Part shown: piece after piece, positions 5,299 through 17,570 of the stretch | How the letters are laid out: the number at the start of each line of letters is the position of its first letter | Position numbering within the stretch: the stretch's first letter is position 1 | Virus record (IMG/VR): IMGVR_UViG_3300003324_000363 | Location: 1-17,570 of that record | Direction: 5' to 3' (one strand) | Length of the DNA stretch: 17,570 nt | DNA from: a virus | Taxonomy: Duplodnaviria > Heunggongvirae > Uroviricota > Caudoviricetes | Position numbers and translations under genes: made by a program | The notes under the pieces: generated by a model | What the model was told of the DNA's origin: nothing | The model's database searches: none | The model's input: only the letters and a program-made list of their open reading frames with translations

Positions 5299-5463
5299 TC
5301 AATATGCATGTACTTTACGTTTGTGCTCACGTACTTTGCCATAACTAAGAAAGCCATCTTTCAAGCATATTGAACATTTGAATCTGATGTATTTTTGTGC
5401 AGGTAGCAATGTGTCTTTAATCAAATACATAGCTGCTTTAGACCATATCTTTTTTGTTTTCAT
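5299..5463 (-). CDS. C2H2 zinc-finger microprotein (54 aa)
   Basis: Hand translation: MKTKKIWSKAAMYLIKDTLLPAQKYIRFKCSICLKDGFLSYGKVREHKRKVHAY; F-x-C-x2-C...F...H-x4-H; ATGA overlap with upstream ORF. Confidence 0.75.
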   Translation of the reverse strand: MKTKKIWSKAAMYLIKDTLLPAQKYIRFKCSICLKDGFLSYGKVREHKRKVHAY

Positions 5464-5696
5464 TTTGGCTCATAGCTCACCTGAAAGAATGCTTTTACTC
5501 CACAAATATCACAGCTTGGGTCGCCATGAGATAGAAATTGAGTTGTAACAAAAACTTGTTTATTTTTAGCTTCTGCAATATATTGTATGCATTTTAACGG
5601 TAAATGGTCACTGCAACAGAATCCCATAACCATGAATGTAACCTGTCTTCTACAAAATAAGCTTTGTTCTGTTTCAGGTGGAAGATTCCTTTGCAT
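5460..5696 (-). CDS. Cys-rich hypothetical, possible zinc-binding
   Basis: 78 aa; C..., CCSDH...C, CDIC. Confidence 0.6.
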   Translation of the reverse strand: MQRNLPPETEQSLFCRRQVTFMVMGFCCSDHLPLKCIQYIAEAKNKQVFVTTQFLSHGDPSCDICGVKAFFQVSYEPK

Positions 5697-5922
5697 CTTG
5701 TTTTACATCCATATATTCAATATGAAGCCAGTCAACCACATGCCATTTGAATACATCAAAAGCCTTAGTCTTGAAATCAATATATAATGTGTTGCCAACT
5801 AATTGCACAATGACTTCTTCACATTCTAATTGTGCTGCGTATTTGCTACATTCAAGTTCAAATCCCCACTGGGTACGTATGTAACAATCTTTTACTTCTA
5901 ATCCGTTGTATGTGATTTTCAT
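5674..5922 (-). CDS. Hypothetical protein (likely start MKITYNG at 5922)
   Basis: ATG at 5922 forms an ATGA overlap with the upstream stop; the longer ORF-track start overlaps the neighbouring gene. Confidence 0.6.
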   Translation of the reverse strand: MKITYNGLEVKDCYIRTQWGFELECSKYAAQLECEEVIVQLVGNTLYIDFKTKAFDVFKWHVVDWLHIEYMDVKQDAKESST

Positions 5923-6182
5923 TGTTCGGCCTCTTTCTTTTCCCATAACGGCCACACTTCTTCTCCTTTCTCTAAAGGCTTGGCACACCACGGGCAGAAC
6001 ATAATGTCTGGAAGATACGTAATACCATCACCACGTACTGCCCATCCCCTATTCTCATATTCTGCTCTCATTCCTTGTGGCACAAAATAGCCTATTTCCC
6101 CTGCATCCCAATTTGGACGTTCTGAGTAATGATTAACATATTCTTTCATTGTTTGACAACATGGTTTTGGAAGGAATTTCAT
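5919..6182 (-). CDS. Hypothetical protein with CC...CPWC zinc-ribbon-like motif
   Basis: 87 aa; PCCQTM...IMFCPWCAKPL. Confidence 0.65.
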   Translation of the reverse strand: MKFLPKPCCQTMKEYVNHYSERPNWDAGEIGYFVPQGMRAEYENRGWAVRGDGITYLPDIMFCPWCAKPLEKGEEVWPLWEKKEAEQ

Positions 6183-6322
6183 TTTTTACGTTCTTCCCCT
6201 ACAGCATAGTTAGCAAAATCAATCATTGCTATCTTATAGCAACGATCTAATGTTTCGTTATCGTGATTCAAGTAATATTCACCACAAATATAGCATATTC
6301 TGCCCAGATTTAGTTCACTCAT
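6179..6322 (-). CDS. CxxC-H-C zinc-finger microprotein (47 aa)
   Basis: Hand translation: MSELNLGRICYICGEYYLNHDNETLDRCYKIAMIDFANYAVGEERKK; ATGA overlaps at both ends. Confidence 0.7.
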   Translation of the reverse strand: MSELNLGRICYICGEYYLNHDNETLDRCYKIAMIDFANYAVGEERKK

Positions 6323-6513
6323 TTCTTTCTCACAACTGTCTTGCCGTCATCATTGTTTGATACTGTAACAATATCAGAATCAGTAATACCATACTTTGGT
6401 GCCATTTCTTTCATAGCTTCATTTAAAGCACAAGCCATCTCGTCTAGGTTCTTCTTTTTCATTATTGTATTTAGCTTTTCAGCATCCTGCTCATCTAGTG
6501 GAACAATCGTCAT
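6319..6513 (-). CDS. Small protein, possibly ribbon-helix-helix-like DNA binder
   Basis: 64 aa; MTIVPLDEQDAEKLNTIM...ALNEAMKE has a strand-helix-helix pattern; has its own TATA box. Confidence 0.45.
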   Translation of the reverse strand: MTIVPLDEQDAEKLNTIMKKKNLDEMACALNEAMKEMAPKYGITDSDIVTVSNNDDGKTVVRKK

Positions 6514-6536
6514 AGGTGTTATTACAAAATCAGGTG

Positions 6537-6543
6537 TTTATAA
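6537..6543 (-). promoter_or_regulatory. Archaeal TATA box (TTATAAA)
   Basis: 24 nt upstream of ATG 6513; AACACCT occurs twice (6532-6538 and 6514-6520). Confidence 0.55.
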
Positions 6544-6666
6544 CTATGTTGATGTTCTACAGCAGATACATTTACAACTACAAGCAACTTCTTCTATCTT
6601 ACTGCCAGACGCATCTTGACAAAAACATTCACAATAGATACATTGTGTAGGCGTGTATTCTGTCAT
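6544..6666 (-). CDS. Cys-rich 40-aa peptide, metallothionein-like CxC clusters
   Basis: Hand translation: MTEYTPTQCIYCECFCQDASGSKIEEVACSCKCICCRTST (9 Cys); fills the gap between neighbours. Confidence 0.6.
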   Translation of the reverse strand: MTEYTPTQCIYCECFCQDASGSKIEEVACSCKCICCRTST

Positions 6667-6671
6667 CAAAA

Positions 6672-6941
6672 TCATTTAGCACCTGTGATATTAAAGTAGC
6701 CGTTGTGTGGGCAAACAATTACAGGTTCAAATGAGCATTTGTTATCAGTACATTTGTTAATGAATAGCTGTAAACAATATGGATGTGTAGCCAAGTAGTT
6801 TTCTGTTGCTTTTGTCGTATGGTATATCTGTGTTTCATCAGGAGAAACCTTTATTGTAGAAACCAGAGCACGACCAACAGCAACAGCTAATAAAATTGCA
6901 ACAACTATTATAGTGCAAAAGACAATAGGTGTTGGAATCAT
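6672..6941 (-). CDS. Small membrane protein (N-terminal TM, Cys/His C-terminus)
   Basis: IVFCTIIVVAILLAVAVG hydrophobic stretch. Confidence 0.65.
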   Translation of the reverse strand: MIPTPIVFCTIIVVAILLAVAVGRALVSTIKVSPDETQIYHTTKATENYLATHPYCLQLFINKCTDNKCSFEPVIVCPHNGYFNITGAK

Positions 6942-6942
6942 A

Positions 6943-7176
6943 CTACTTAGGCACCACCTTACATTCTGTTATTTCTGTGTGATGATAGATAGGCACAATG
7001 CTGCTTCCTACATGTATGAATTGAACCCAATCATGATATTTGCCTGTGCCATAGCACACTTCTTTCAATCTTTTAGCATCTAGTTCTGCATCGTGTTGTA
7101 TTTTAGCTTCAACTGCCCATGCAATTAAGCCGCCAACTCCTACAGCAATGAGTATGAGCAATATCTTCATATTCAC
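6943..7176 (-). CDS. Small membrane protein
   Basis: KILLILIAVGVGGLIAWAV TM segment. Confidence 0.65.
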   Translation of the reverse strand: MNMKILLILIAVGVGGLIAWAVEAKIQHDAELDAKRLKEVCYGTGKYHDWVQFIHVGSSIVPIYHHTEITECKVVPK

Positions 7177-7298
7177 AGTCTATCTACACTCCCACACACA
7201 TTACAAAAACGAACACATATTTCTTTGCCTTGGATAACACGTCTGTTGAATATGATAGCATCACTACCACATGCCCTGCATGACTCATACCGTGACAT
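7173..7298 (-). CDS. Zinc-ribbon microprotein (41 aa)
   Basis: Hand translation: MSRYESCRACGSDAIIFNRRVIQGKEICVRFCNVCGSVDRL; CxxCG twice; TTTATAA at 7331-7325 upstream. Confidence 0.7.
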   Translation of the reverse strand: MSRYESCRACGSDAIIFNRRVIQGKEICVRFCNVCGSVDRL

Positions 7299-8425: not shown

Positions 8426-8836
8426 ATGGCAAAGTCCATATTCCCACATTCATGCAAAATCTGTGAAAGTGACCTAGTGCTTCTAAAGACTGATAGCATA
8501 CAAATAGCACCAAGAGCACCGGGGGGAAGAGGAAGGAAAATAACTACTGTTCTTGCATGGTGTAGGCATTGTAGAACTGTGTTTGATAAAGATGGATTGA
8601 ACGTAGCTAATCTTCCAGTCCAGCCTGTTTACAAGACAAAAAAGCCATCAGAAATATTTGAAGAGGCAATGAAAATATACAATGCATTCAAACGTGGTGA
8701 GCTTAAACAAGTTGACCCGCCCAAGAGAAAGTCTGCTGGGTGTGGTGTTTGTGAGTGCCCTTCATCTGCTCATACAACATATGAGAGTGATGGAAAGGTT
8801 ATTTCAAGCTGTATGAATTGTAAAGCTGTGCATTAA
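8426..8836 (+). CDS. Double zinc-ribbon protein; the only convincing plus-strand gene
   Basis: CKIC...WCRHC and CGVC...H...CMNC; has its own TATA; converges on the TrmB gene with a 4-nt overlap. Confidence 0.75.
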   Translation: MAKSIFPHSCKICESDLVLLKTDSIQIAPRAPGGRGRKITTVLAWCRHCRTVFDKDGLNVANLPVQPVYKTKKPSEIFEEAMKIYNAFKRGELKQVDPPKRKSAGCGVCECPSSAHTTYESDGKVISSCMNCKAVH

Positions 8837-9654
8837 TTACACATCGCAAATACAAACTTGAATGTGTTTATCAATCCCTTGTTTGTAGTATAAACTGCAC
8901 TGGTATCTTTCTTTGTCATAATATCATCAAATATCATTATCATTTCTTTATCATCAATTATGAGAAAAGTTGTAGGCACAATCATTTCTATCTTTTTTAT
9001 ATAAATATCTCGTCTCTTCTCCCTGCTATCGTCATATCCAATGTATTGTGAGACGTTGCTAGTTGGTGTCTTAAAACCTACTTTTAGCCTGCCTGATAAA
9101 ATATCATCTGTTATTGACTCATTATACATTTTAGCCAAGTATCGTTCTGTTGCCAAAATCATGACTGTTTCATTTGCATTATCCACCATCTTTCTCATTC
9201 TTGCCATTAGTGGGGCATGACCTTCAATTACCTGAATAATGCCAGCATCGTCTTCAAGTGCAGGCAAAGCTTTTCTAACATATGTGTTTTGCAACAAATC
9301 AACAAGCTGTTTTCCATTGTATAGCTTTTTGAACTTTACTTCTTCATAAGCCATCAATGTTTTTACAATGTCTTCAAATGTGGTCACACTGTATAGTGTT
9401 TTTCTGTTCTTATGATAAGCTTCTAAAATGTTCTTTTTTGTTAATGTGGTGATGTATCTGTAAATTTCTGTTCGTTGGATGTTTAGATATTTTCCTATTT
9501 CAGATGCAGATAAAGAACCTCTAGTAAGCAAAAGCACAACAACTCTTGCTTCATTTTGTCCTAGACCAGCCTCCTGTAGAGCATAAACTATCTCGTTGGT
9601 TGCCTGAACTACTTTTGTATGTATGTCAATGTCTTGTGACAAGCTCCAACTCAA
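8833..9654 (-). CDS. TrmB-family transcriptional regulator (wHTH plus C-terminal effector/PLD-like domain)
   Basis: LQEAGLGQNEARVVVLLLTRGSLSASEIGKYLNIQRTEIYRYITTLTKKNIL is a TrmB-type HTH; IQVIEG...FLIIDDKEMIM...AVYTTNKGLI matches the TrmB C-terminal pattern. Confidence 0.85.
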   Translation of the reverse strand: MSWSLSQDIDIHTKVVQATNEIVYALQEAGLGQNEARVVVLLLTRGSLSASEIGKYLNIQRTEIYRYITTLTKKNILEAYHKNRKTLYSVTTFEDIVKTLMAYEEVKFKKLYNGKQLVDLLQNTYVRKALPALEDDAGIIQVIEGHAPLMARMRKMVDNANETVMILATERYLAKMYNESITDDILSGRLKVGFKTPTSNVSQYIGYDDSREKRRDIYIKKIEMIVPTTFLIIDDKEMIMIFDDIMTKKDTSAVYTTNKGLINTFKFVFAMCN

Positions 9655-10055
9655 TGTAATGTGATTTGCAATGTTTTTCCAGATGATTGTCCATGCATAG
9701 TTACCGTTCCCACAGATTTGTTTTCAAAGATAGTAAAAACATCGCCAAACTTGTCAGCCTTATCCATATGTATTGTTTTATCCCAAGATACTGTCATTTT
9801 TATGACTTCGTTTGCTTGGAAATGTTTTGCATAAATAAGCTTGCCATCATCGTGGTAAATCACACCTTGATCTTTAGAATAGTCATCATTTGGGTTGTTT
9901 GCTTTAAGTATCTGTGTTTGTGAATAGTCGTTTGGGTTGCCATTTAGACTATTGCTGTCGTCAGGATTGACATACGACAATGATAGCAGAGTAGCTATAA
10001 CTGCAAGTATGCCTCCACCAGAAACAACGCCTGCTATTGCACTATTTTTATTCAT
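9651..10055 (-). CDS. Membrane-anchored protein, coupled to the TrmB gene
   Basis: IAGVVSGGGILAVIATLLSL TM segment; NPNDY/NPNDDY internal repeat; TATATA at 10087-10082. Confidence 0.7.
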   Translation of the reverse strand: MNKNSAIAGVVSGGGILAVIATLLSLSYVNPDDSNSLNGNPNDYSQTQILKANNPNDDYSKDQGVIYHDDGKLIYAKHFQANEVIKMTVSWDKTIHMDKADKFGDVFTIFENKSVGTVTMHGQSSGKTLQITLH

Positions 10056-10097
10056 TGATGGGTAGAAATGTGGATAGAGAATATATAGCTTGACTTC

Positions 10098-10307
10098 TTA
10101 AACCTGTATTTCCCATTCATCTTCAAATGGCTTTACTTTCTCCATTTGAGCTTCAGTTATCATATCTTCCATATGCAACCAGATTAGCAGTGTTTTATCC
10201 ACATACTTTAGTTCGTTTTCATTAACATATGTGGAATCAAATGCCCGTCTACCTTCAATACGTGGTGCTCGGCTGATAAATTCCATAACATTCGAAGATA
10301 CTCTCAT
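10098..10307 (-). CDS. Array member 17: Cys-free head plus conserved helix (LIWLHMEDMI)
   Basis: ORF track 69 aa; ATGA coupling; shares the array tail motif. Confidence 0.75.
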   Translation of the reverse strand: MRVSSNVMEFISRAPRIEGRRAFDSTYVNENELKYVDKTLLIWLHMEDMITEAQMEKVKPFEDEWEIQV

Positions 10308-10507
10308 GCCTTTTCACCATTTAACATATCAGCAATGTGATAGAATATCAGGTCGTGTTTAGGTAGTTCCATGAGTGTTTCATCATACACATCAATATCT
10401 ACAAATTCACATGTTGTTGGTATAGGCACTCTTCCGTCAGTCAATGCCATATACTGGTCATATGTAAGTGTGAATATACTGTAGGCACCTTCTGGATAAC
10501 GTTTCAT
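10304..10507 (-). CDS. Array member 16: non-zinc-finger head plus conserved helix (LIFYHIADML)
   Basis: ORF track 67 aa; ATGA coupling. Confidence 0.75.
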   Translation of the reverse strand: MKRYPEGAYSIFTLTYDQYMALTDGRVPIPTTCEFVDIDVYDETLMELPKHDLIFYHIADMLNGEKA

Positions 10508-10716
10508 TGTTTAGAACCTGCCAATTCTGCTTCATTTATCATATCTTCAATGTGCAGGTATATCTTTTCTGTAGGTGTTAATAGTTTCAATTCTGAGTCT
10601 GTATAGGAAAGACAGTAGTATTTTGGCTGTAAAACTGATGCATATTCTACCACTCTATACTCTGGATACATTCTCATGAGAAATCCAGTTGCATTACGTT
10701 CTAAATATCTTCTCAA
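10504..10716 (-). CDS. Array member 15: non-zinc-finger head plus conserved helix (KIYLHIEDMI)
   Basis: ORF track 70 aa; TTG start overlapping the upstream TGA (TTGA). Confidence 0.75.
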   Translation of the reverse strand: MRRYLERNATGFLMRMYPEYRVVEYASVLQPKYYCLSYTDSELKLLTPTEKIYLHIEDMINEAELAGSKQ

Positions 10717-10862
10717 TCTACATTCGCCAGCTTTCCTAGCATATCTTTCATCTCATAATAGATTGCAATAGTTATACTCTTATGGTATTCTTTAGCATAG
10801 CAGCTCCAACAAACATACCTTTTGGCAAAATTGAAACAATTTTCAGCATTACATGTATGCAT
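10713..10862 (-). CDS. Array member 14: C4 zinc-finger plus helix (49 aa)
   Basis: Hand translation: MHTCNAENCFNFAKRYVCWSCYAKEYHKSITIAIYYEMKDMLGKLANVD. Confidence 0.85.
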   Translation of the reverse strand: MHTCNAENCFNFAKRYVCWSCYAKEYHKSITIAIYYEMKDMLGKLANVD

Positions 10863-10866
10863 CTAT

Positions 10867-11049
10867 TCATCCACCACGATTCCCATTCACAGTTTTAGCA
10901 TCAGAAGAGGAAGTATTTGCCTCTATCATTTCCTTCATTTCCCAGAATATGGCATTTGTCATATCAAAGTCCATTAACTTACAATAGCAACTTCTACATA
11001 GCACTGTGTTTGTCCCACTATCGCATTCTTTTATTACACACTTTTTCAA
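10867..11049 (-). CDS. Array member 13 (60 aa, TTG start)
   Basis: MKKCVIKECDSGTNTVLCRSCYCKLMDFDMTNAIFWEMKEMIEA...; TTG 1 nt after the upstream TAA. Confidence 0.85.
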   Translation of the reverse strand: MKKCVIKECDSGTNTVLCRSCYCKLMDFDMTNAIFWEMKEMIEANTSSSDAKTVNGNRGG

Positions 11050-11050
11050 G

Positions 11051-11206
11051 TTAGCTTGCCTCAATCCTGCCTAGCAGTTCTAGCATCTCTCCAAATATGG
11101 CATGTGTGATGTTTGTCTGTCCTGTTATTGGTGACTTGCAGAAACAACTCCAGCATAGCCTGCTTGATGTCAAGTTATCACAATGTTCTGTTTTACATTT
11201 GTTCAA
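11051..11206 (-). CDS. Array member 12 (51 aa, TTG start)
   Basis: Hand translation: MNKCKTEHCDNLTSSRLCWSCFCKSPITGQTNITHAIFGEMLELLGRIEAS. Confidence 0.85.
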   Translation of the reverse strand: MNKCKTEHCDNLTSSRLCWSCFCKSPITGQTNITHAIFGEMLELLGRIEAS

Positions 11207-11207
11207 G

Positions 11208-11348
11208 CTATTCAATCCCCTTCTTGCCTAGCATCTCTACCATTTCTCTGTATATTGCTTCTGTCATTGATAATGACAATATAGTGATATAACAACTCCA
11301 GCAGGTTCGATATTGTGTTACATTGGTGCACAATATACATTTGTTCAA
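11208..11348 (-). CDS. Array member 11 (46 aa, TTG start)
   Basis: Hand translation: MNKCILCTNVTQYRTCWSCYITILSLSMTEAIYREMVEMLGKKGIE. Confidence 0.85.
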   Translation of the reverse strand: MNKCILCTNVTQYRTCWSCYITILSLSMTEAIYREMVEMLGKKGIE

Positions 11349-11349
11349 C

Positions 11350-11508
11350 TCATTCATCTCCATTTGTCGAAGTTTTCTTTTCTGCTATCAACTCACTCAT
11401 CTCATGCCATATTACCTCTATAGCAGTCATCTTGTTATTCTTGTGGTAAAAACAGCTCCAACATACGGTGAAATAAGTTACATTTAAGCAATCTTTACAT
11501 TTATTCAA
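11350..11508 (-). CDS. Array member 10 (52 aa, TTG start)
   Basis: MNKCKDCLNVTYFTVCWSCFYHKNNKMTAIEVIWHEMSELIAEKK... Confidence 0.85.
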   Translation of the reverse strand: MNKCKDCLNVTYFTVCWSCFYHKNNKMTAIEVIWHEMSELIAEKKTSTNGDE

Positions 11509-11674
11509 CGTATGACCACCTAACCATAGCACCTTTTACACCATAAATCATTTCAAGAATGTTTCTTTCTATTGCATGTGTGGCATTTGTCTTTGGTTGT
11601 AGAATCTTTGCCCAGCAGCTCCAGCATAGTGACCATCCATTATGTTTGTAGTCACCACACATGCATCTAGTCAA
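11501..11674 (-). CDS. Array member 9 (57 aa, TTG start)
   Basis: MTRCMCGDYKHNGWSLCWSCWAKILQPKTNATHAIERNILEMIYG... Confidence 0.85.
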   Translation of the reverse strand: MTRCMCGDYKHNGWSLCWSCWAKILQPKTNATHAIERNILEMIYGVKGAMVRWSYVE

Positions 11675-11843
11675 TTTTACCTTTTCTCCTATGCAATGCC
11701 CCTGTAAATCCATGTAGCATTTCAAGTATCTCAAACTCTATTATGTTTACAGCATTGGCACCACGATTGTTTCTAGATAGCCAACATGACCAACAGTTGT
11801 CATGTCCCCATTCTTTATACATACCACAATTGCATTTTACCAT
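11667..11843 (-). CDS. Array member 8 (58 aa)
   Basis: Hand translation: MVKCNCGMYKEWGHDNCWSCWLSRNNRGANAVNIIEFEILEMLHGFTGALHRRKGKID. Confidence 0.85.
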   Translation of the reverse strand: MVKCNCGMYKEWGHDNCWSCWLSRNNRGANAVNIIEFEILEMLHGFTGALHRRKGKID

Positions 11844-12019
11844 TTCCTAGTACGCCACCTATCATTTGCTTCTTTTGCACCAAATACCATATCCACTATT
11901 TCCAGTTCTATAGCTTTCACAATACCTATGTCTGAAATGTGAACATACTCTACATAGCAAGACCAGCAATAGCCGTTTATCTGATCTTTATAATTTCCAC
12001 ATTCACATTTGTTTGTCAT
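11837..12019 (-). CDS. Array member 7 (60 aa)
   Basis: MTNKCECGNYKDQINGYCWSCY...KAIELEIVDMVFG... Confidence 0.85.
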   Translation of the reverse strand: MTNKCECGNYKDQINGYCWSCYVEYVHISDIGIVKAIELEIVDMVFGAKEANDRWRTRKW

Positions 12020-12022
12020 TTC

Positions 12023-12169
12023 TTATTCCCTCAACAACATATTCGTCATGTCTGACATGATTATGCTCAATATTGGCTCTCTGCTAACTCTTGTCCACCA
12101 ACAACGCCAACAGAATCCGGCTGGCACATCTGACCAATACGGACAGTCTTTTGTACCACAATGTGCCAT
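12023..12169 (-). CDS. Array member 6 (48 aa)
   Basis: Hand translation: MAHCGTKDCPYWSDVPAGFCWRCWWTRVSREPILSIIMSDMTNMLLRE; TAATG coupling. Confidence 0.85.
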   Translation of the reverse strand: MAHCGTKDCPYWSDVPAGFCWRCWWTRVSREPILSIIMSDMTNMLLRE

Positions 12170-12576
12170 TATTCTTTATACCCCACAAAATGTTTGTAGA
12201 ATGCTGTCATTTCTGGGTATAACATTTCTTTGACTTCCCATTCTATTGCAGATACAACATTGCAGGTTTTTGCTACTTGAATATACAAACAAGCAGAGCA
12301 TAAGTTTTCAGGAAATGCCCTCAATAAAGACAATTTGCCACATTTGGAACAATTACTGAAGCTCATGTACGTATCCCCTAAGTTTTTATATATTGACCTT
12401 TCTGAAAAGAGCATCTCATGAATCTCCCATTCTATTGTGTTTATGACAGCATATCCTTTCCCACCAAAACTTTCACTTTCTGCATAATAACATTTAGCAC
12501 ATGACCCACATGCATTGTATATTTTCCCAAAGCTTTGGCAAGTTGGACAATCAGCATAACAATATGGCTCTTTCAT
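12169..12576 (-). CDS. Array member 5: two units fused in frame (135 aa)
   Basis: Unit a CPTC...CAKCYY...TIEWEIHEML; unit b from Met71 (12366) CSKC...CSACLY...AIEWEVKEML. Confidence 0.85.
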   Translation of the reverse strand: MKEPYCYADCPTCQSFGKIYNACGSCAKCYYAESESFGGKGYAVINTIEWEIHEMLFSERSIYKNLGDTYMSFSNCSKCGKLSLLRAFPENLCSACLYIQVAKTCNVVSAIEWEVKEMLYPEMTAFYKHFVGYKE

Positions 12577-12725
12577 TAGCTGCCACTCAACATGTCATAA
12601 AGGTGATGGGTAAGTACAGACAGTGCACGGTCTGTGTATCCGTAGTCATCAAAATAACAATTCCAGCATCTAGGAAGATGTTTAGGTTTAAACTTGATGC
12701 ATAATGGGCATATTTCTGGTGACAT
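12576..12725 (-). CDS. Array member 4 (49 aa)
   Basis: Hand translation: MSPEICPLCIKFKPKHLPRCWNCYFDDYGYTDRALSVLTHHLYDMLSGS; TAATG at both ends. Confidence 0.85.
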   Translation of the reverse strand: MSPEICPLCIKFKPKHLPRCWNCYFDDYGYTDRALSVLTHHLYDMLSGS

Positions 12726-12901
12726 TATGCACTTACCTCTTTTAGCATGTCTCTCATTTCGGCAATGATTGCAGAAATTATAGGAGCAGGATAGCCAGCA
12801 ATCTTATAGTAGCATGTGGCGCAGCACAAATTGCTGCCCCACCTATCTGCATTGTCCACTTTACATTTGCAACCACACTGAAAACAAAGTCCAATAGCCA
12901 T
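12725..12901 (-). CDS. Array member 3 (58 aa)
   Basis: Hand translation: MAIGLCFQCGCKCKVDNADRWGSNLCCATCYYKIAGYPAPIISAIIAEMRDMLKEVSA. Confidence 0.85.
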   Translation of the reverse strand: MAIGLCFQCGCKCKVDNADRWGSNLCCATCYYKIAGYPAPIISAIIAEMRDMLKEVSA

Positions 12902-12903
12902 TA

Positions 12904-13068
12904 TTAGTCTACCTCTGGAAATCTTATCATATTTCTTATTTCAAAATCTATTGTCAATAGAACAGGATTTTCATAGCCTAGTGATCGATAATAGCATGGC
13001 GAACAAGAATTTACAACTTCGTGTATTTTACACACACGCCCACATTTTGGGCAAGCATCAATAGTCAT
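12904..13068 (-). CDS. Array member 2 (54 aa)
   Basis: Hand translation: MTIDACPKCGRVCKIHEVVNSCSPCYYRSLGYENPVLLTIDFEIRNMIRFPEVD. Confidence 0.85.
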   Translation of the reverse strand: MTIDACPKCGRVCKIHEVVNSCSPCYYRSLGYENPVLLTIDFEIRNMIRFPEVD

Positions 13069-13232
13069 TGTGCATTTATCTCCAACTCACGTTTATCAGC
13101 TAACATCTCGCCCATGTCGTATTCGATTATTGACAAAACATCAAAGACCTTATTATCTCTAGCATAGCAGCATCGCCAGCAATAATTGTTAAATGGTGCT
13201 ACATACCCATTACATTGCCTGCAATAACGCAC
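13065..13232 (-). CDS. Array member 1 (55 aa, GTG start, probably leaderless)
   Basis: Hand translation: MRYCRQCNGYVAPFNNYCWRCCYARDNKVFDVLSIIEYDMGEMLADKRELEINAQ. Confidence 0.8.
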   Translation of the reverse strand: MRYCRQCNGYVAPFNNYCWRCCYARDNKVFDVLSIIEYDMGEMLADKRELEINAQ

Positions 13233-13254: not shown

Positions 13255-13270
13255 TATATAAATATATTTA
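13255..13270 (-). promoter_or_regulatory. Array promoter: TTTATATA box overlapped by the palindrome TAAATATATTTA
   Basis: TATA ends 23 nt before GTG 13232; the same 16-mer recurs at 16143-16158. Confidence 0.65.
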
Positions 13271-13546
13271 CTTATGGTGCTGGAAGTGTGGATTCTTGTA
13301 TTTTACAGGCAATACCTTTCTAACCCGGCTAAAATCATAGCCCATGCTTCTTACCTCATTGCTTATTATTGTGCTTATCAGGTGTAAAGGCACCTGTTTA
13401 CTATGTTCTAGCTCATATGCACGTTGCAAAATGTAAGCTGTTATATCTAGTCTTGTTGGTGCTCCCACACCTTCAAGCTTACTTGGCGGCAGCAAGTCGG
13501 ATTCTGTCGATCTTTTGATTGTCTTGTAGGGACGTTTGCCTTTCAT
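13268..13546 (-). CDS. Basic hypothetical protein, possibly DNA-binding
   Basis: 92 aa, K/R-rich; ATGA coupling to the HNH gene. Confidence 0.6.
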   Translation of the reverse strand: MKGKRPYKTIKRSTESDLLPPSKLEGVGAPTRLDITAYILQRAYELEHSKQVPLHLISTIISNEVRSMGYDFSRVRKVLPVKYKNPHFQHHK

Positions 13547-13914
13547 GTTGCAATCACTTGCCCATACATATCATAGTGTGTAACTTCATTGTTAGAGTAT
13601 CTTTTGATAAAGTTACAATTAGCACATAGAATCTGGAATATTGTCGTTGCCTCTTCTGGATGACGTAAATAATATTTTACAAACTGTTCATTGTTAGGAA
13701 AAAGGAGTCTATGTTTTGTGCCTCCACCTTTAATGTGGTCTATCTGCAATGCTCGATAATCAGCAAATCCACATTGTGCACATTTATCTCCTAATAATTT
13801 TATCAAGCTTATTCTATTTTTTACTCGTCTTATTCTTTCGGCAATACGTTTCTTTTCCTTTAACTCTGGCTTTTTGTTGTATTCGTGCATGTAGGCTTTC
13901 CTAGCAAGAGACAC
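13543..13914 (-). CDS. HNH endonuclease
   Basis: CAQCG...LQIDHIKGGG...FQILCANCNFIK zinc-binding HNH signature; TTTATA at 13943-13938, 24 nt before the GTG. Confidence 0.85.
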   Translation of the reverse strand: MSLARKAYMHEYNKKPELKEKKRIAERIRRVKNRISLIKLLGDKCAQCGFADYRALQIDHIKGGGTKHRLLFPNNEQFVKYYLRHPEEATTIFQILCANCNFIKRYSNNEVTHYDMYGQVIAT

Positions 13915-13951: not shown

Positions 13952-14752
13952 CTAGTCGTGAGCATACATGGCACCATTATATGGGTCGAAAGTAATTGTC
14001 ACAGTTCCTACCCGTTTAGCTTCTTTTGGATTTATTTCCACATACCCGTCCACTCCTCTTGCATATCCTTGCAAGAATGTGCCAGTATTACAATACAATA
14101 TTTTTCTTTCAATTGGTGAATTTGTTTTATAATCATACCCTACTCTGATTCCACTTCTAGTCCAAGTATCGTGATTGTGCCCCATGAGAATGACATCTGC
14201 ATCAAAATCTGACCCAATCTGTTTCATTCTATTCACTGACCCTCCTGCCTGCATCCCAGAATAACCTCCATGCAAAGCTAAAATCAAATAGTTTCGTATT
14301 GTTTGCCCTTTATACTTACAACTCAAATGGATGTAGGCTAATCTTCCAAGATATGAGCATCCTAACGGGTTACAAATGTCGGTAATAAATCGTTTCATAT
14401 TGATGGTACGCCATTCATGATTCCCACTCAATAGTCCCCAAGTTTTATGTTTCAGTGGCTGCCATAACTGTAGAAAATACTCAACTTGCTCCTCAGTCAT
14501 CATATGCTGTCTGTCAACTGTTTCAGGATTCCAACGTTTGTCAACCTGTCCTCCTGCATAAGCCATGATGTTATCAATGTAATCACCCATGCCAATCGTG
14601 TAGTAATCCTTGTTATTGGCAACAAATTTGACATGCTTTTTGAATTCGTCAACATCACAAGCTATGTTGCCTAGATGAATGTCCCCCAGTGGACGTACGT
14701 GAATTTTTGCATCTTTGGTTGGTAATTCGATAGTTACACGTTTACAGAACAC
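13952..14752 (-). CDS. Calcineurin-like metallophosphoesterase
   Basis: All five motifs present: GDIHLG, GDYIDN, GNHE, HG, GHNH. Confidence 0.9.
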   Translation of the reverse strand: MFCKRVTIELPTKDAKIHVRPLGDIHLGNIACDVDEFKKHVKFVANNKDYYTIGMGDYIDNIMAYAGGQVDKRWNPETVDRQHMMTEEQVEYFLQLWQPLKHKTWGLLSGNHEWRTINMKRFITDICNPLGCSYLGRLAYIHLSCKYKGQTIRNYLILALHGGYSGMQAGGSVNRMKQIGSDFDADVILMGHNHDTWTRSGIRVGYDYKTNSPIERKILYCNTGTFLQGYARGVDGYVEINPKEAKRVGTVTITFDPYNGAMYAHD

Positions 14753-14819: not shown

Positions 14820-14951
14820 CTATGACGGAACATCATGTTCAAAGACCTCACGTTCATCAACCCATCCACAGCCACGACAATTAGCCCACTCATCAAACCA
14901 AACTCCAACTTTTGTTGATTGACATTTAGGACACCATACTCTTGTTGGCAA
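14820..14951 (-). CDS. Zinc-ribbon microprotein (43 aa, TTG start)
   Basis: Hand translation: MPTRVWCPKCQSTKVGVWFDEWANCRGCGWVDEREVFEHDVPS. Confidence 0.7.
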   Translation of the reverse strand: MPTRVWCPKCQSTKVGVWFDEWANCRGCGWVDEREVFEHDVPS

Positions 14952-15068
14952 TTATGTTTTCTTCTCCATGGTCATCATGGTGCATTCTAAACATAGCCAA
15001 TGATTTTTCCACCAAACAAAAATGCCATCTGTGTGCAATTCTGCTCCACAGTTTTCACATTTGAACAT
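14952..15068 (-). CDS. C4 zinc-finger microprotein (38 aa)
   Basis: Hand translation: MFKCENCGAELHTDGIFVWWKNHWLCLECTMMTMEKKT. Confidence 0.7.
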   Translation of the reverse strand: MFKCENCGAELHTDGIFVWWKNHWLCLECTMMTMEKKT

Positions 15069-15183
15069 GTGTTTTGTCGTTCTCCTTCTCAGAATCATTC
15101 CAACCTTTAGACCATCCTATGCTATAGCCAAATAGAAAAGCCAAGACACAGCTTGCAACTCCACCAAGTATTAATTCTAACAT
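15055..15183 (-). CDS. Small membrane protein (42 aa)
   Basis: Hand translation: MLELILGGVASCVLAFLFGYSIGWSKGWNDSEKENDKTHVQM. Confidence 0.65.
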   Translation of the reverse strand: MLELILGGVASCVLAFLFGYSIGWSKGWNDSEKENDKTHVQM

Positions 15184-15375
15184 TTATGATCTTTTGTACT
15201 TTTGAGTATAGTTATTTCCAACAATTACAGCAACTATGTGTGCCCACAACTCATCTTCTGGATGGAGATGGTGATACCTTGAAATCATTATCGAAATGTC
15301 ATCACTCATAATAGGTTGACCATCGAGAGTAAACTTTTCCATATCAAGAATGTGTGTATTGCTCATATTAGCCAC
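15184..15375 (-). CDS. Hypothetical protein (start may be ATG 15366)
   Basis: ORF track 63 aa; abuts neighbours. Confidence 0.55.
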   Translation of the reverse strand: MANMSNTHILDMEKFTLDGQPIMSDDISIMISRYHHLHPEDELWAHIVAVIVGNNYTQKYKRS

Positions 15376-15529
15376 TTTTGACAGTTACCCAAACTTTAGA
15401 TGGCATCTTGTCATTATAGCCATCATAATCATCACACCAAATCTTTGTTATAGGTTCATCTATTTTCAATAGTTTGGCAATCTCTTCTATTGTTAATTCG
15501 TATGTTTGCTCTCCAGCTATTTTCTTCAT
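15368..15529 (-). CDS. Hypothetical protein (53 aa)
   Basis: Hand translation: MKKIAGEQTYELTIEEIAKLLKIDEPITKIWCDDYDGYNDKMPSKVWVTVKSG. Confidence 0.6.
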   Translation of the reverse strand: MKKIAGEQTYELTIEEIAKLLKIDEPITKIWCDDYDGYNDKMPSKVWVTVKSG

Positions 15530-15530
15530 G

Positions 15531-15713
15531 CTATAATACCACCTTGTACTTTAGCTTTCTTCCTCTACTTTCCATGCCTTTGCACTTATCAACATGTCTG
15601 TTAAATCTGCCAATGAATCTTATGAATCTTCGACATTTGGGACATTGATAATAAGCTCGTGGCTCATCTGCTCTTATGCTTGCAATTTCTTCCCAAGTTA
15701 TGCCGGGTGCCAA
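15531..15713 (-). CDS. C2HC-type zinc-finger small protein
   Basis: YYQCPKCRRF...FNRHVDKC. Confidence 0.65.
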   Translation of the reverse strand: MAPGITWEEIASIRADEPRAYYQCPKCRRFIRFIGRFNRHVDKCKGMESRGRKLKYKVVL

Positions 15714-17189: not shown

Positions 17190-17330
17190 TTAGATTTCTG
17201 GCTTTTGACATGAGCATGGAGTATGCTGGCAATAAACAACACTGCCATAATGAAGAAGCATAATATCCAAGTTTACCACATACTCAAACACTTGGTGGTT
17301 ACAGTTTTTGCAGGTTTTATATTTTGTCAA
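17190..17330 (-). CDS. Cys/His zinc-binding microprotein (46 aa; alternative ATG at 17339)
   Basis: Hand translation: MTKYKTCKNCNHQVFEYVVNLDIMLLHYGSVVYCQHTPCSCQKPEI. Confidence 0.6.
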   Translation of the reverse strand: MTKYKTCKNCNHQVFEYVVNLDIMLLHYGSVVYCQHTPCSCQKPEI

Positions 17331-17570
17331 AGAATACATTACCTGACTGGAAATAACTTACAGCCATTAAAAATGCATCACCCAAGTCAAACGTCAATTT
17401 CTTTTTATCAGGATGCCCTCTCTCATTTATTTCAACTGAACGTAATTGAGCAATCAAATCTTTGAAATCTGGATGAATTCTAACCATTCTCTCACGTACA
17501 CGTGTTGGTGCCAATCCACTCATGTCTGTTAGCATTTCCCTAAACATCACTGGTTCAACAGATATTGGTG
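17317..17570 (-). CDS. terL: Terminase large subunit, C-terminal RNase H-like nuclease end (partial)
   Basis: Frame is open to the window edge (PISVEPVMFRE...); KDLIAQLRSVE...KKLTFDLGDAFLMAVSYF matches the terminal acidic D-x-x-D-A motif of TerL nucleases; portal on the same strand. Confidence 0.7.
   Translation of the reverse strand, partial: PISVEPVMFREMLTDMSGLAPTRVRERMVRIHPDFKDLIAQLRSVEINERGHPDKKKLTFDLGDAFLMAVSYFQSGNVFFDKI

Follow-up and report, generated by a model that had tools for sequence, protein, structure and literature searches.

The virus record analysed here comprises 99,684 bases with direct terminal repeats (IMG/VR record IMGVR_UViG_3300003324_000363), and the window, meaning the whole stretch of DNA that was analysed, is its first 17,570 bases. 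It belongs to a tailed virus, about 100 kb in size, of soil ammonia-oxidising archaea, as is concluded from a portal protein that shares 48% identity with its counterpart in the Nitrososphaera provirus Pro-Nvie1 and from the TrmB-type regulator and HNH endonuclease encoded in the neighbourhood of a large gene array. This array lies on the minus strand, where 17 small genes (m1 to m17) run back-to-back from position 13232 down to 10098 and encode 18 units. Fourteen of the genes (m1-m14, 10713-13232, minus strand) encode 15 zinc units, in each of which a four-cysteine head of the form CxxC-x(8-15)-CxxC is followed by a helix core with the consensus I-x-x-[EDNH]-[MILV]-x-[EDN]-[ML]-[LIV], numbered here from position 0 to position 8. 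The fifth gene, m5 (12169-12576, minus strand), is a double unit in which each head has its own helix, and m4 carries the core LTHHLYDML (12588-12614, minus strand), which makes it the sole zinc unit with a histidine at core position 3.

An AT-rich, TATA-like element of 16 nt (13255-13270) precedes the m1 start by 23 nt and has no second copy within the array, even when up to 3 mismatches are allowed; the array is therefore consistent with one transcription unit running from m1 to m17, and with m15-17 being co-transcribed with the other members as a single operon. The gap-free array ends at a 42-nt spacer past the m17 stop codon (10056-10097, minus strand), containing the TATA-like sequence GCTATATATTC and lying ahead of the next gene, which encodes a protein of 134 aa that has a hydrophobic stretch at the N-terminus (9651-10055). 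On the other side of the array are the HNH endonuclease gene and a gene for a calcineurin-like phosphatase (13543-13914 and 13952-14752), the HNH gene being situated between the phosphatase and the array. Many further small ORFs of the CxxC or C2H2 type are scattered in the window (5299-7298, 8426-8836, 14820-15713 and 17190-17339), that at 8426-8836 being a plus-strand gene for a 136-aa protein with four CxxC pairs, and the helix core is present in none of them. It is also missing from other overlapping runs of small zinc-type ORFs in this virus, judged by the helix-only HMM and the regular expression described below.

A first-pass annotation of this DNA had singled out the last three genes of the array as lacking the four-Cys pattern while keeping a variant of the helix motif, and both observations were borne out. 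The m15 gene (10504-10716, minus strand) encodes a Cys-poor protein (1 Cys) of 70 aa if translation begins at a TTG codon (10716) or 57 aa from an ATG (10677), and its helix core is IYLHIEDMI (10537-10563, minus strand). The next gene, m16 (10304-10507, minus strand), encodes a similarly Cys-poor protein of 67 aa with 1 Cys, a pI of 4.4 and the core IFYHIADML (10322-10348, minus strand), and the array's last gene, m17 (10098-10307, minus strand), encodes 69 aa with no Cys, a pI of 4.8 and the core IWLHMEDMI (10158-10184, minus strand). The motif I[YFW][LY]H[IM][EA]DM[IL] is thus present in all three, with the His variant also seen in m4 as had been claimed, but it is not accurate to say that the proteins end in it, as 10, 5 and 19 residues come after the motif in m15, m16 and m17 respectively. 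The claim that the three N-termini are unlike each other also stood, since their mutual similarity was not significant (P of 0.09-0.6 against shuffled sequences).

A codon-usage frame test, for which the codon model was trained on 42 long ORFs of the virus, gave the m15-17 reading frame +0.29 to +0.35 bits per codon (+0.29 to +0.33 for the m15 frame), equal to the score of the neighbouring genes, and negative values for the other five frames. Start and stop codons overlap, the m15 start sharing TTGA with the m14 stop and the m16 and m17 starts each sharing ATGA with the stop of the gene before, and public gene calls cover m15, m16 and m17. On the grounds of codon usage, start-stop overlaps and gene calls, m15-17 are real genes. 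The start of m15 is itself ambiguous, as it is the TTG at 10716 that overlaps the m14 stop, while the public gene call uses the ATG at 10677.

When an HMM was built from the 15 zinc units only, m15, m16 and m17 scored 7.2, 8.1 and 9.7 bits, and these scores were reached by 4, 1 and 0 of 2000 shuffles respectively, so that the motif is significant against shuffled sequences. When the same HMM was run on the 207 ORFs of the window, the three came directly behind the 14 member genes. With a helix-only HMM of 17 columns, run on all 2158 six-frame ORFs of the genome, they took the first three places among the non-members, m16 being the best non-member match. A regular expression composed of residues seen in the zinc units only gave 22 matches in 117,116 translated residues: the 15 defining units, m15-17, and 4 elsewhere. 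Searching in the reverse direction, a profile built from m15-17 matched m14, m13 and m4 best when self matches are set aside, and a profile-profile comparison of the two alignments with hhalign gave P = 6e-4, with the helix region alone aligned; no part of the N-termini of m15-17 aligned to the zinc finger by HMM or by hhalign. The conserved residues are encoded by varying synonymous codons (ATA/ATC, GAA/GAG, GAT/GAC and CAC/CAT, together with four codons for Leu), and the motif is separated from the next start by anything from 3 to 19 codons, which argues for a constraint on the protein and not for an RNA or translational coupling signal. The match of m15-17 to the zinc units is therefore real and acts at the protein level.

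The helix core is the sole element common to all 18 units and it outlasts the total loss of the four-Cys pattern, supporting the helix as the most constrained part of the family. Its information content is about 3.6 bits at positions 0 and 7 and about 2.6 bits at positions 3, 4, 6 and 8, and positions 3 and 6 are polar, and mostly acidic, in 18 of 18 units. In the zinc units the core is also preceded by hydrophobic residues at -4, -3 and -1, which were not retained in m15-17.

An AlphaFold2 model of m14, made with the 15-unit alignment (pLDDT 86, pTM 0.61), shows a short hairpin carrying the first knuckle, a helix (residues 19-25) from the second CxxC, a four-residue turn and a helix (residues 30-46) that contains the core. 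Residues 1-27 of this model superimpose on an HNH-type zinc knuckle at 0.9 A rmsd, and residues 19-49 on the two-helix hairpins of ribbon-helix-helix and helix-turn-helix proteins with TM-scores of 0.44-0.5 (ESM Atlas). No match of the m14 model reached significance: Foldseek found nothing in the PDB at E <= 0.001, its top rows being Arc/AmrZ at E of about 5 and a probability of about 0.1, the best Z in a wide VIA-align search was 3.7, and TM-scores in the ESM Atlas were about 0.5 or less. In 14 of the 15 zinc units 12-15 residues separate the fourth Cys from core position 0, and this spacing, together with the compact predicted hairpin and the presence of one helix per head in m5, makes the helix look like an integral half of one compact fold and not like a tethered peptide. 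Judging helix packing from the secondary structure and the fold matches, core positions 0, 4, 7 and 8 would form a hydrophobic core while positions 3 and 6 would form an exposed acidic rim. A Lys or Arg stands 3-4 residues past the fourth Cys in 10 of the 15 zinc units, whereas m4, with its His in place of an acidic residue at core position 3, has Asp-Asp there; this pattern, in what is a small sample, could reflect a salt bridge formed within the molecule between the helix of the knuckle and that of the core.

For m15, AlphaFold2 with a three-sequence alignment gave a model of lower overall confidence (pLDDT 56.6) in which a short helix (residues 40-44), a turn and a long helix (residues 48-68) are predicted at a pLDDT of about 75, matching m14 in arrangement and register. 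The pair of short and long helices is probably kept in m15-17. Their N-terminal halves were poorly modelled (pLDDT 38-53 by AlphaFold2; mean values of 0.44-0.46 for m16 and m17 in the ESM Atlas), and the Protein Atlas gave no feature matches for m16 or m17. The length of this half is preserved, with 38-53 residues before the core in m15-17 compared to 33-54 in the zinc units. A MAFFT alignment of all 18 units places the lone Cys of m16 in the column of the fourth Cys and that of m15 one column off, for which a rough estimate of the chance probability is about 0.04. The N-terminal halves are rich in aromatic residues and, in m16 and m17, acidic, and the net charges of the two proteins (-7 and -5) compare with -3 to +5 in the zinc units. 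No alternative set of metal ligands was found in m15-17, which have 1-2 His each, nor was a frameshifted relic of a zinc finger found in their other frames, nor any DNA similarity of the three genes to the rest of the array.

On balance, we regard m15-17 as probably those paralogues in the array that are oldest or have diverged fastest, with the metal clamp lost, the N-terminal half rebuilt and the helix kept. The ancestral unit would have been a mini-domain of about 50 residues, in which a four-Cys zinc knuckle hairpin led into a short helix beginning at the second CxxC, and then, after a turn, into a longer amphipathic helix whose positions 0, 4, 7 and 8 would have made up a tiny core and whose acidic rim (positions 3 and 6) would have been exposed. 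In m15-17 the metal ligands would then have been lost and the N-terminal half would have diverged beyond recognition, the helix core being kept because it would serve the fold as its backbone and the family as its constant surface. Descent by decay is suggested by the matches of the reverse profile to the adjacent m14 and m13 and to the His variant m4. The first-pass annotation had proposed that these genes replace the zinc finger, and this was not supported, since the unit size is the same, the Cys of m16 is aligned and the helix pair of m15 mirrors that of the zinc units; decay of the metal site accounts for these three observations no less well than an exchange of heads would, and we infer that decay took place and that the two-helix hairpin was retained. 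The related proposal, that the helix is a separable module, was likewise not supported: the core does survive the loss of the four Cys and is common to all units, but the fixed spacing and the compact predicted hairpin speak against its being separable. Against decay count the N-termini, which resemble neither the zinc finger nor one another to a detectable degree, as do the loss of the hydrophobic residues at -4, -3 and -1, the unreliability of the N-terminal models and the chance probability of about 0.04 for the lone-Cys alignment. Since there is neither a relic nor DNA similarity, it is possible that a 3' end coding for the helix was joined to 5' sequence of unrelated origin.

On this reading, the 18 units together would be small protein-binding modulators of the host, acting for example in takeover or counter-defence. 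Binding to protein is likelier than binding to DNA because of the near-neutral to acidic charge, the small size and the single promoter, and the net charge near zero or negative also argues against the array proteins acting like the ribbon-helix-helix DNA-binding proteins.

Three alternatives to metal-site decay were weighed. It is rather unlikely that, as in the adaptor model favoured by the first-pass annotation, the helix is an autonomous docking peptide for one common hub, of host or virus, to which the 18 heads bring different targets. That the core is the sole common element and outlives the zinc site would fit such an arrangement, as would the near-neutral to acidic charge and the high variability of the heads (21-44% identity), and the model is kept alive mainly by positions 3 and 6, which appear to be exposed and which stay polar and mostly acidic in 18 units when a structural role alone would need no such residues. 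However, the fixed spacing of 12-15 residues and the compact hairpin suggest that the hydrophobic face is buried within the unit, the double unit m5 retains one helix per head, and no known docking motif or domain was matched in Pfam, PHROGs, PDB sequences or the fold libraries. To our knowledge, none of the PIP box, MIM1, the HbYX tail and the UIM fits the core. A complex prediction for zinc-bound m14 with m16 scored 0.01, which is evidence neither for nor against.

Poxviral ANK/PRANC proteins offer a parallel for such docking, being a set of many paralogues with variable target-binding heads and a conserved C-terminal helical element that docks to a common host hub (PMC4353913, PMC9414399). 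The likeness is a functional analogy for the docking model only and not homology, Pfam giving no match. The docking element of the array would be a helix core of 9 residues compared to about 40 in the F-box, the PRANC hub is eukaryotic (a cullin-RING ubiquitin ligase reached via Skp1), and the array proteins had no sequence or fold match to the F-box in Pfam, Foldseek or VIA-align. We hold it to be doubtful that an acidic-rimmed helix plugs all 18 heads, including the three without metal, into one hub as an independently evolved archaeal-virus counterpart of F-box/PRANC proteins.

It is also improbable that the helices pack against one another to give homo- or hetero-oligomers, which the members without the Cys pattern would cap or modulate. 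The zinc units do have a broad hydrophobic face (positions -4, -1, 0, 4, 7, 8 and 11), expression from a single coupled operon would supply the partners in matched amounts, and dimeric ribbon-helix-helix proteins head the list of weak fold matches, but those matches (E of about 5) are not significant, no heptad-like periodicity extends past about 12 residues and positive support for oligomerisation is absent. It is highly improbable that the motif in m15-17 is a product of chance or of a nucleotide signal such as translational coupling, with m15-17 as unrelated small ORFs or non-genes, for although their individual HMM scores are low (7-10 bits) and a few other Cys-rich mini-ORFs of the genome score equally high with the full zinc profile, the shuffles and the genome-wide helix-only ranks oppose this, as do the adjacency of the three matches in the strand and register of the array, the varying synonymous codons and motif-to-start distances (3-19 codons) and the clearly positive frame test.

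Relatives of the array proteins were sought widely. Word-indexed searches of 5.8 billion proteins with both alignments returned self matches only, and an exhaustive HMMER search of 1.84 billion representatives returned self matches and generic multi-CxxC proteins only. One 144-aa protein of the representative library (P0024) has three CxxC...CWNC knuckle repeats, two of them followed by ENPxI[IV]EIL, which loosely recalls the layout of knuckle plus helix; hhalign aligns the knuckle alone and we consider the protein unrelated. Scanning IMG/VR with the back-translated His-variant motif gave 9 matches, roughly as many as chance would yield, all of them in ORFs that are short or out of context. 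A 159-aa ORF with IYQHIEDMM in a longer, helical-looking stretch (IMG/VR contig 3300020125_000277, 1439-1464) was judged to match the degenerate pattern by chance. In metagenome contigs 109 stretches matched the His-variant motif and none was confirmed, a six-frame profile search of 301 sampled Nitrososphaeria genomes gave matches at chance level only, and tblastn against 50,697 phage records gave nothing. There were no matches in Pfam at E up to 1 for m14-m17, m5 or m1, and the sole match in PHROGs, of m16 to phrog_35263 (E = 0.066), was not significant. As no relative was found in the protein, IMG/VR, metagenome, Nitrososphaeria or phage collections, the zinc units and the trio at the end of the array appear, among the collections searched, to be an ORFan expansion confined to this virus.

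The surroundings of the array were compared in the same way. Array members were absent from 17 viral loci that share the upstream phosphatase (51-68% identity) and from 39 loci that share the HNH gene, and the flanking TrmB-like and 134-aa genes had no relatives in IMG/VR or the metagenomes. In one of the phosphatase-sharing contigs (L004) the HNH gene is absent too. Because the array is missing from the 17 phosphatase loci and the HNH gene from this contig, the HNH gene plus array looks like a block inserted in one lineage.

The nearest precedent for a zinc-less member in a set of zinc-finger micro-proteins comes from Haloferax, where metal-free members are documented and the protein persists (PMC11241148). 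Like the zinc units of the array, the Haloferax micro-proteins are shorter than 70 aa and have two CxxC knuckles. They are, however, scattered cellular genes with no shared C-terminal helix motif, whereas those described here form a viral tandem operon; their metal-free members retain cysteines where m15-17 have lost theirs, and the searches found no sequence similarity between the two sets. Generic C4 ribbons and knuckles (bL32, Nop10, RpoM/TFS and eL40) aligned weakly to the heads of m1-m14 (E of 0.04-1), these matches to PDB sequences covering the head only and never the helix, with none significant and no match for m15-17.

Archaeal viruses commonly contain tandem expansions of tiny zinc-finger genes, and we know of almost none that has a known role. 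Zinc-finger micro-proteins, tandem paralogues in viruses and degenerate metal-free members are all familiar already, and the finding is an interesting case of paralogue decay, above which the present evidence does not raise it. Its use lies in the three natural "mutants" found in one operon, which would reveal the part that selection protects once the metal site has been given up, namely the nine-residue core. This provides a defined peptide, and defined residues (0, 3, 4, 6, 7 and 8), to mutate or to use as bait, with m15-17 as built-in metal-free controls, and any function found would be new because the family is without relatives in billions of proteins.

A few further features are shared by m15-17 among themselves. 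Upstream of the core the three align without gaps from -14 to -6, with Leu at -9 in 3 of 3, Asp or Glu at -12 and Lys, Lys and Met at -8, and each has an aromatic residue at -13 or -14 before the core. This suggests that m15-17 may form a subfamily of their own, the likeness outside the core not being statistically significant. When m15 is read from its ATG start it begins MRMYPE, compared to MKRYPE in m16, so that both proteins open with M[RK]xYPE.
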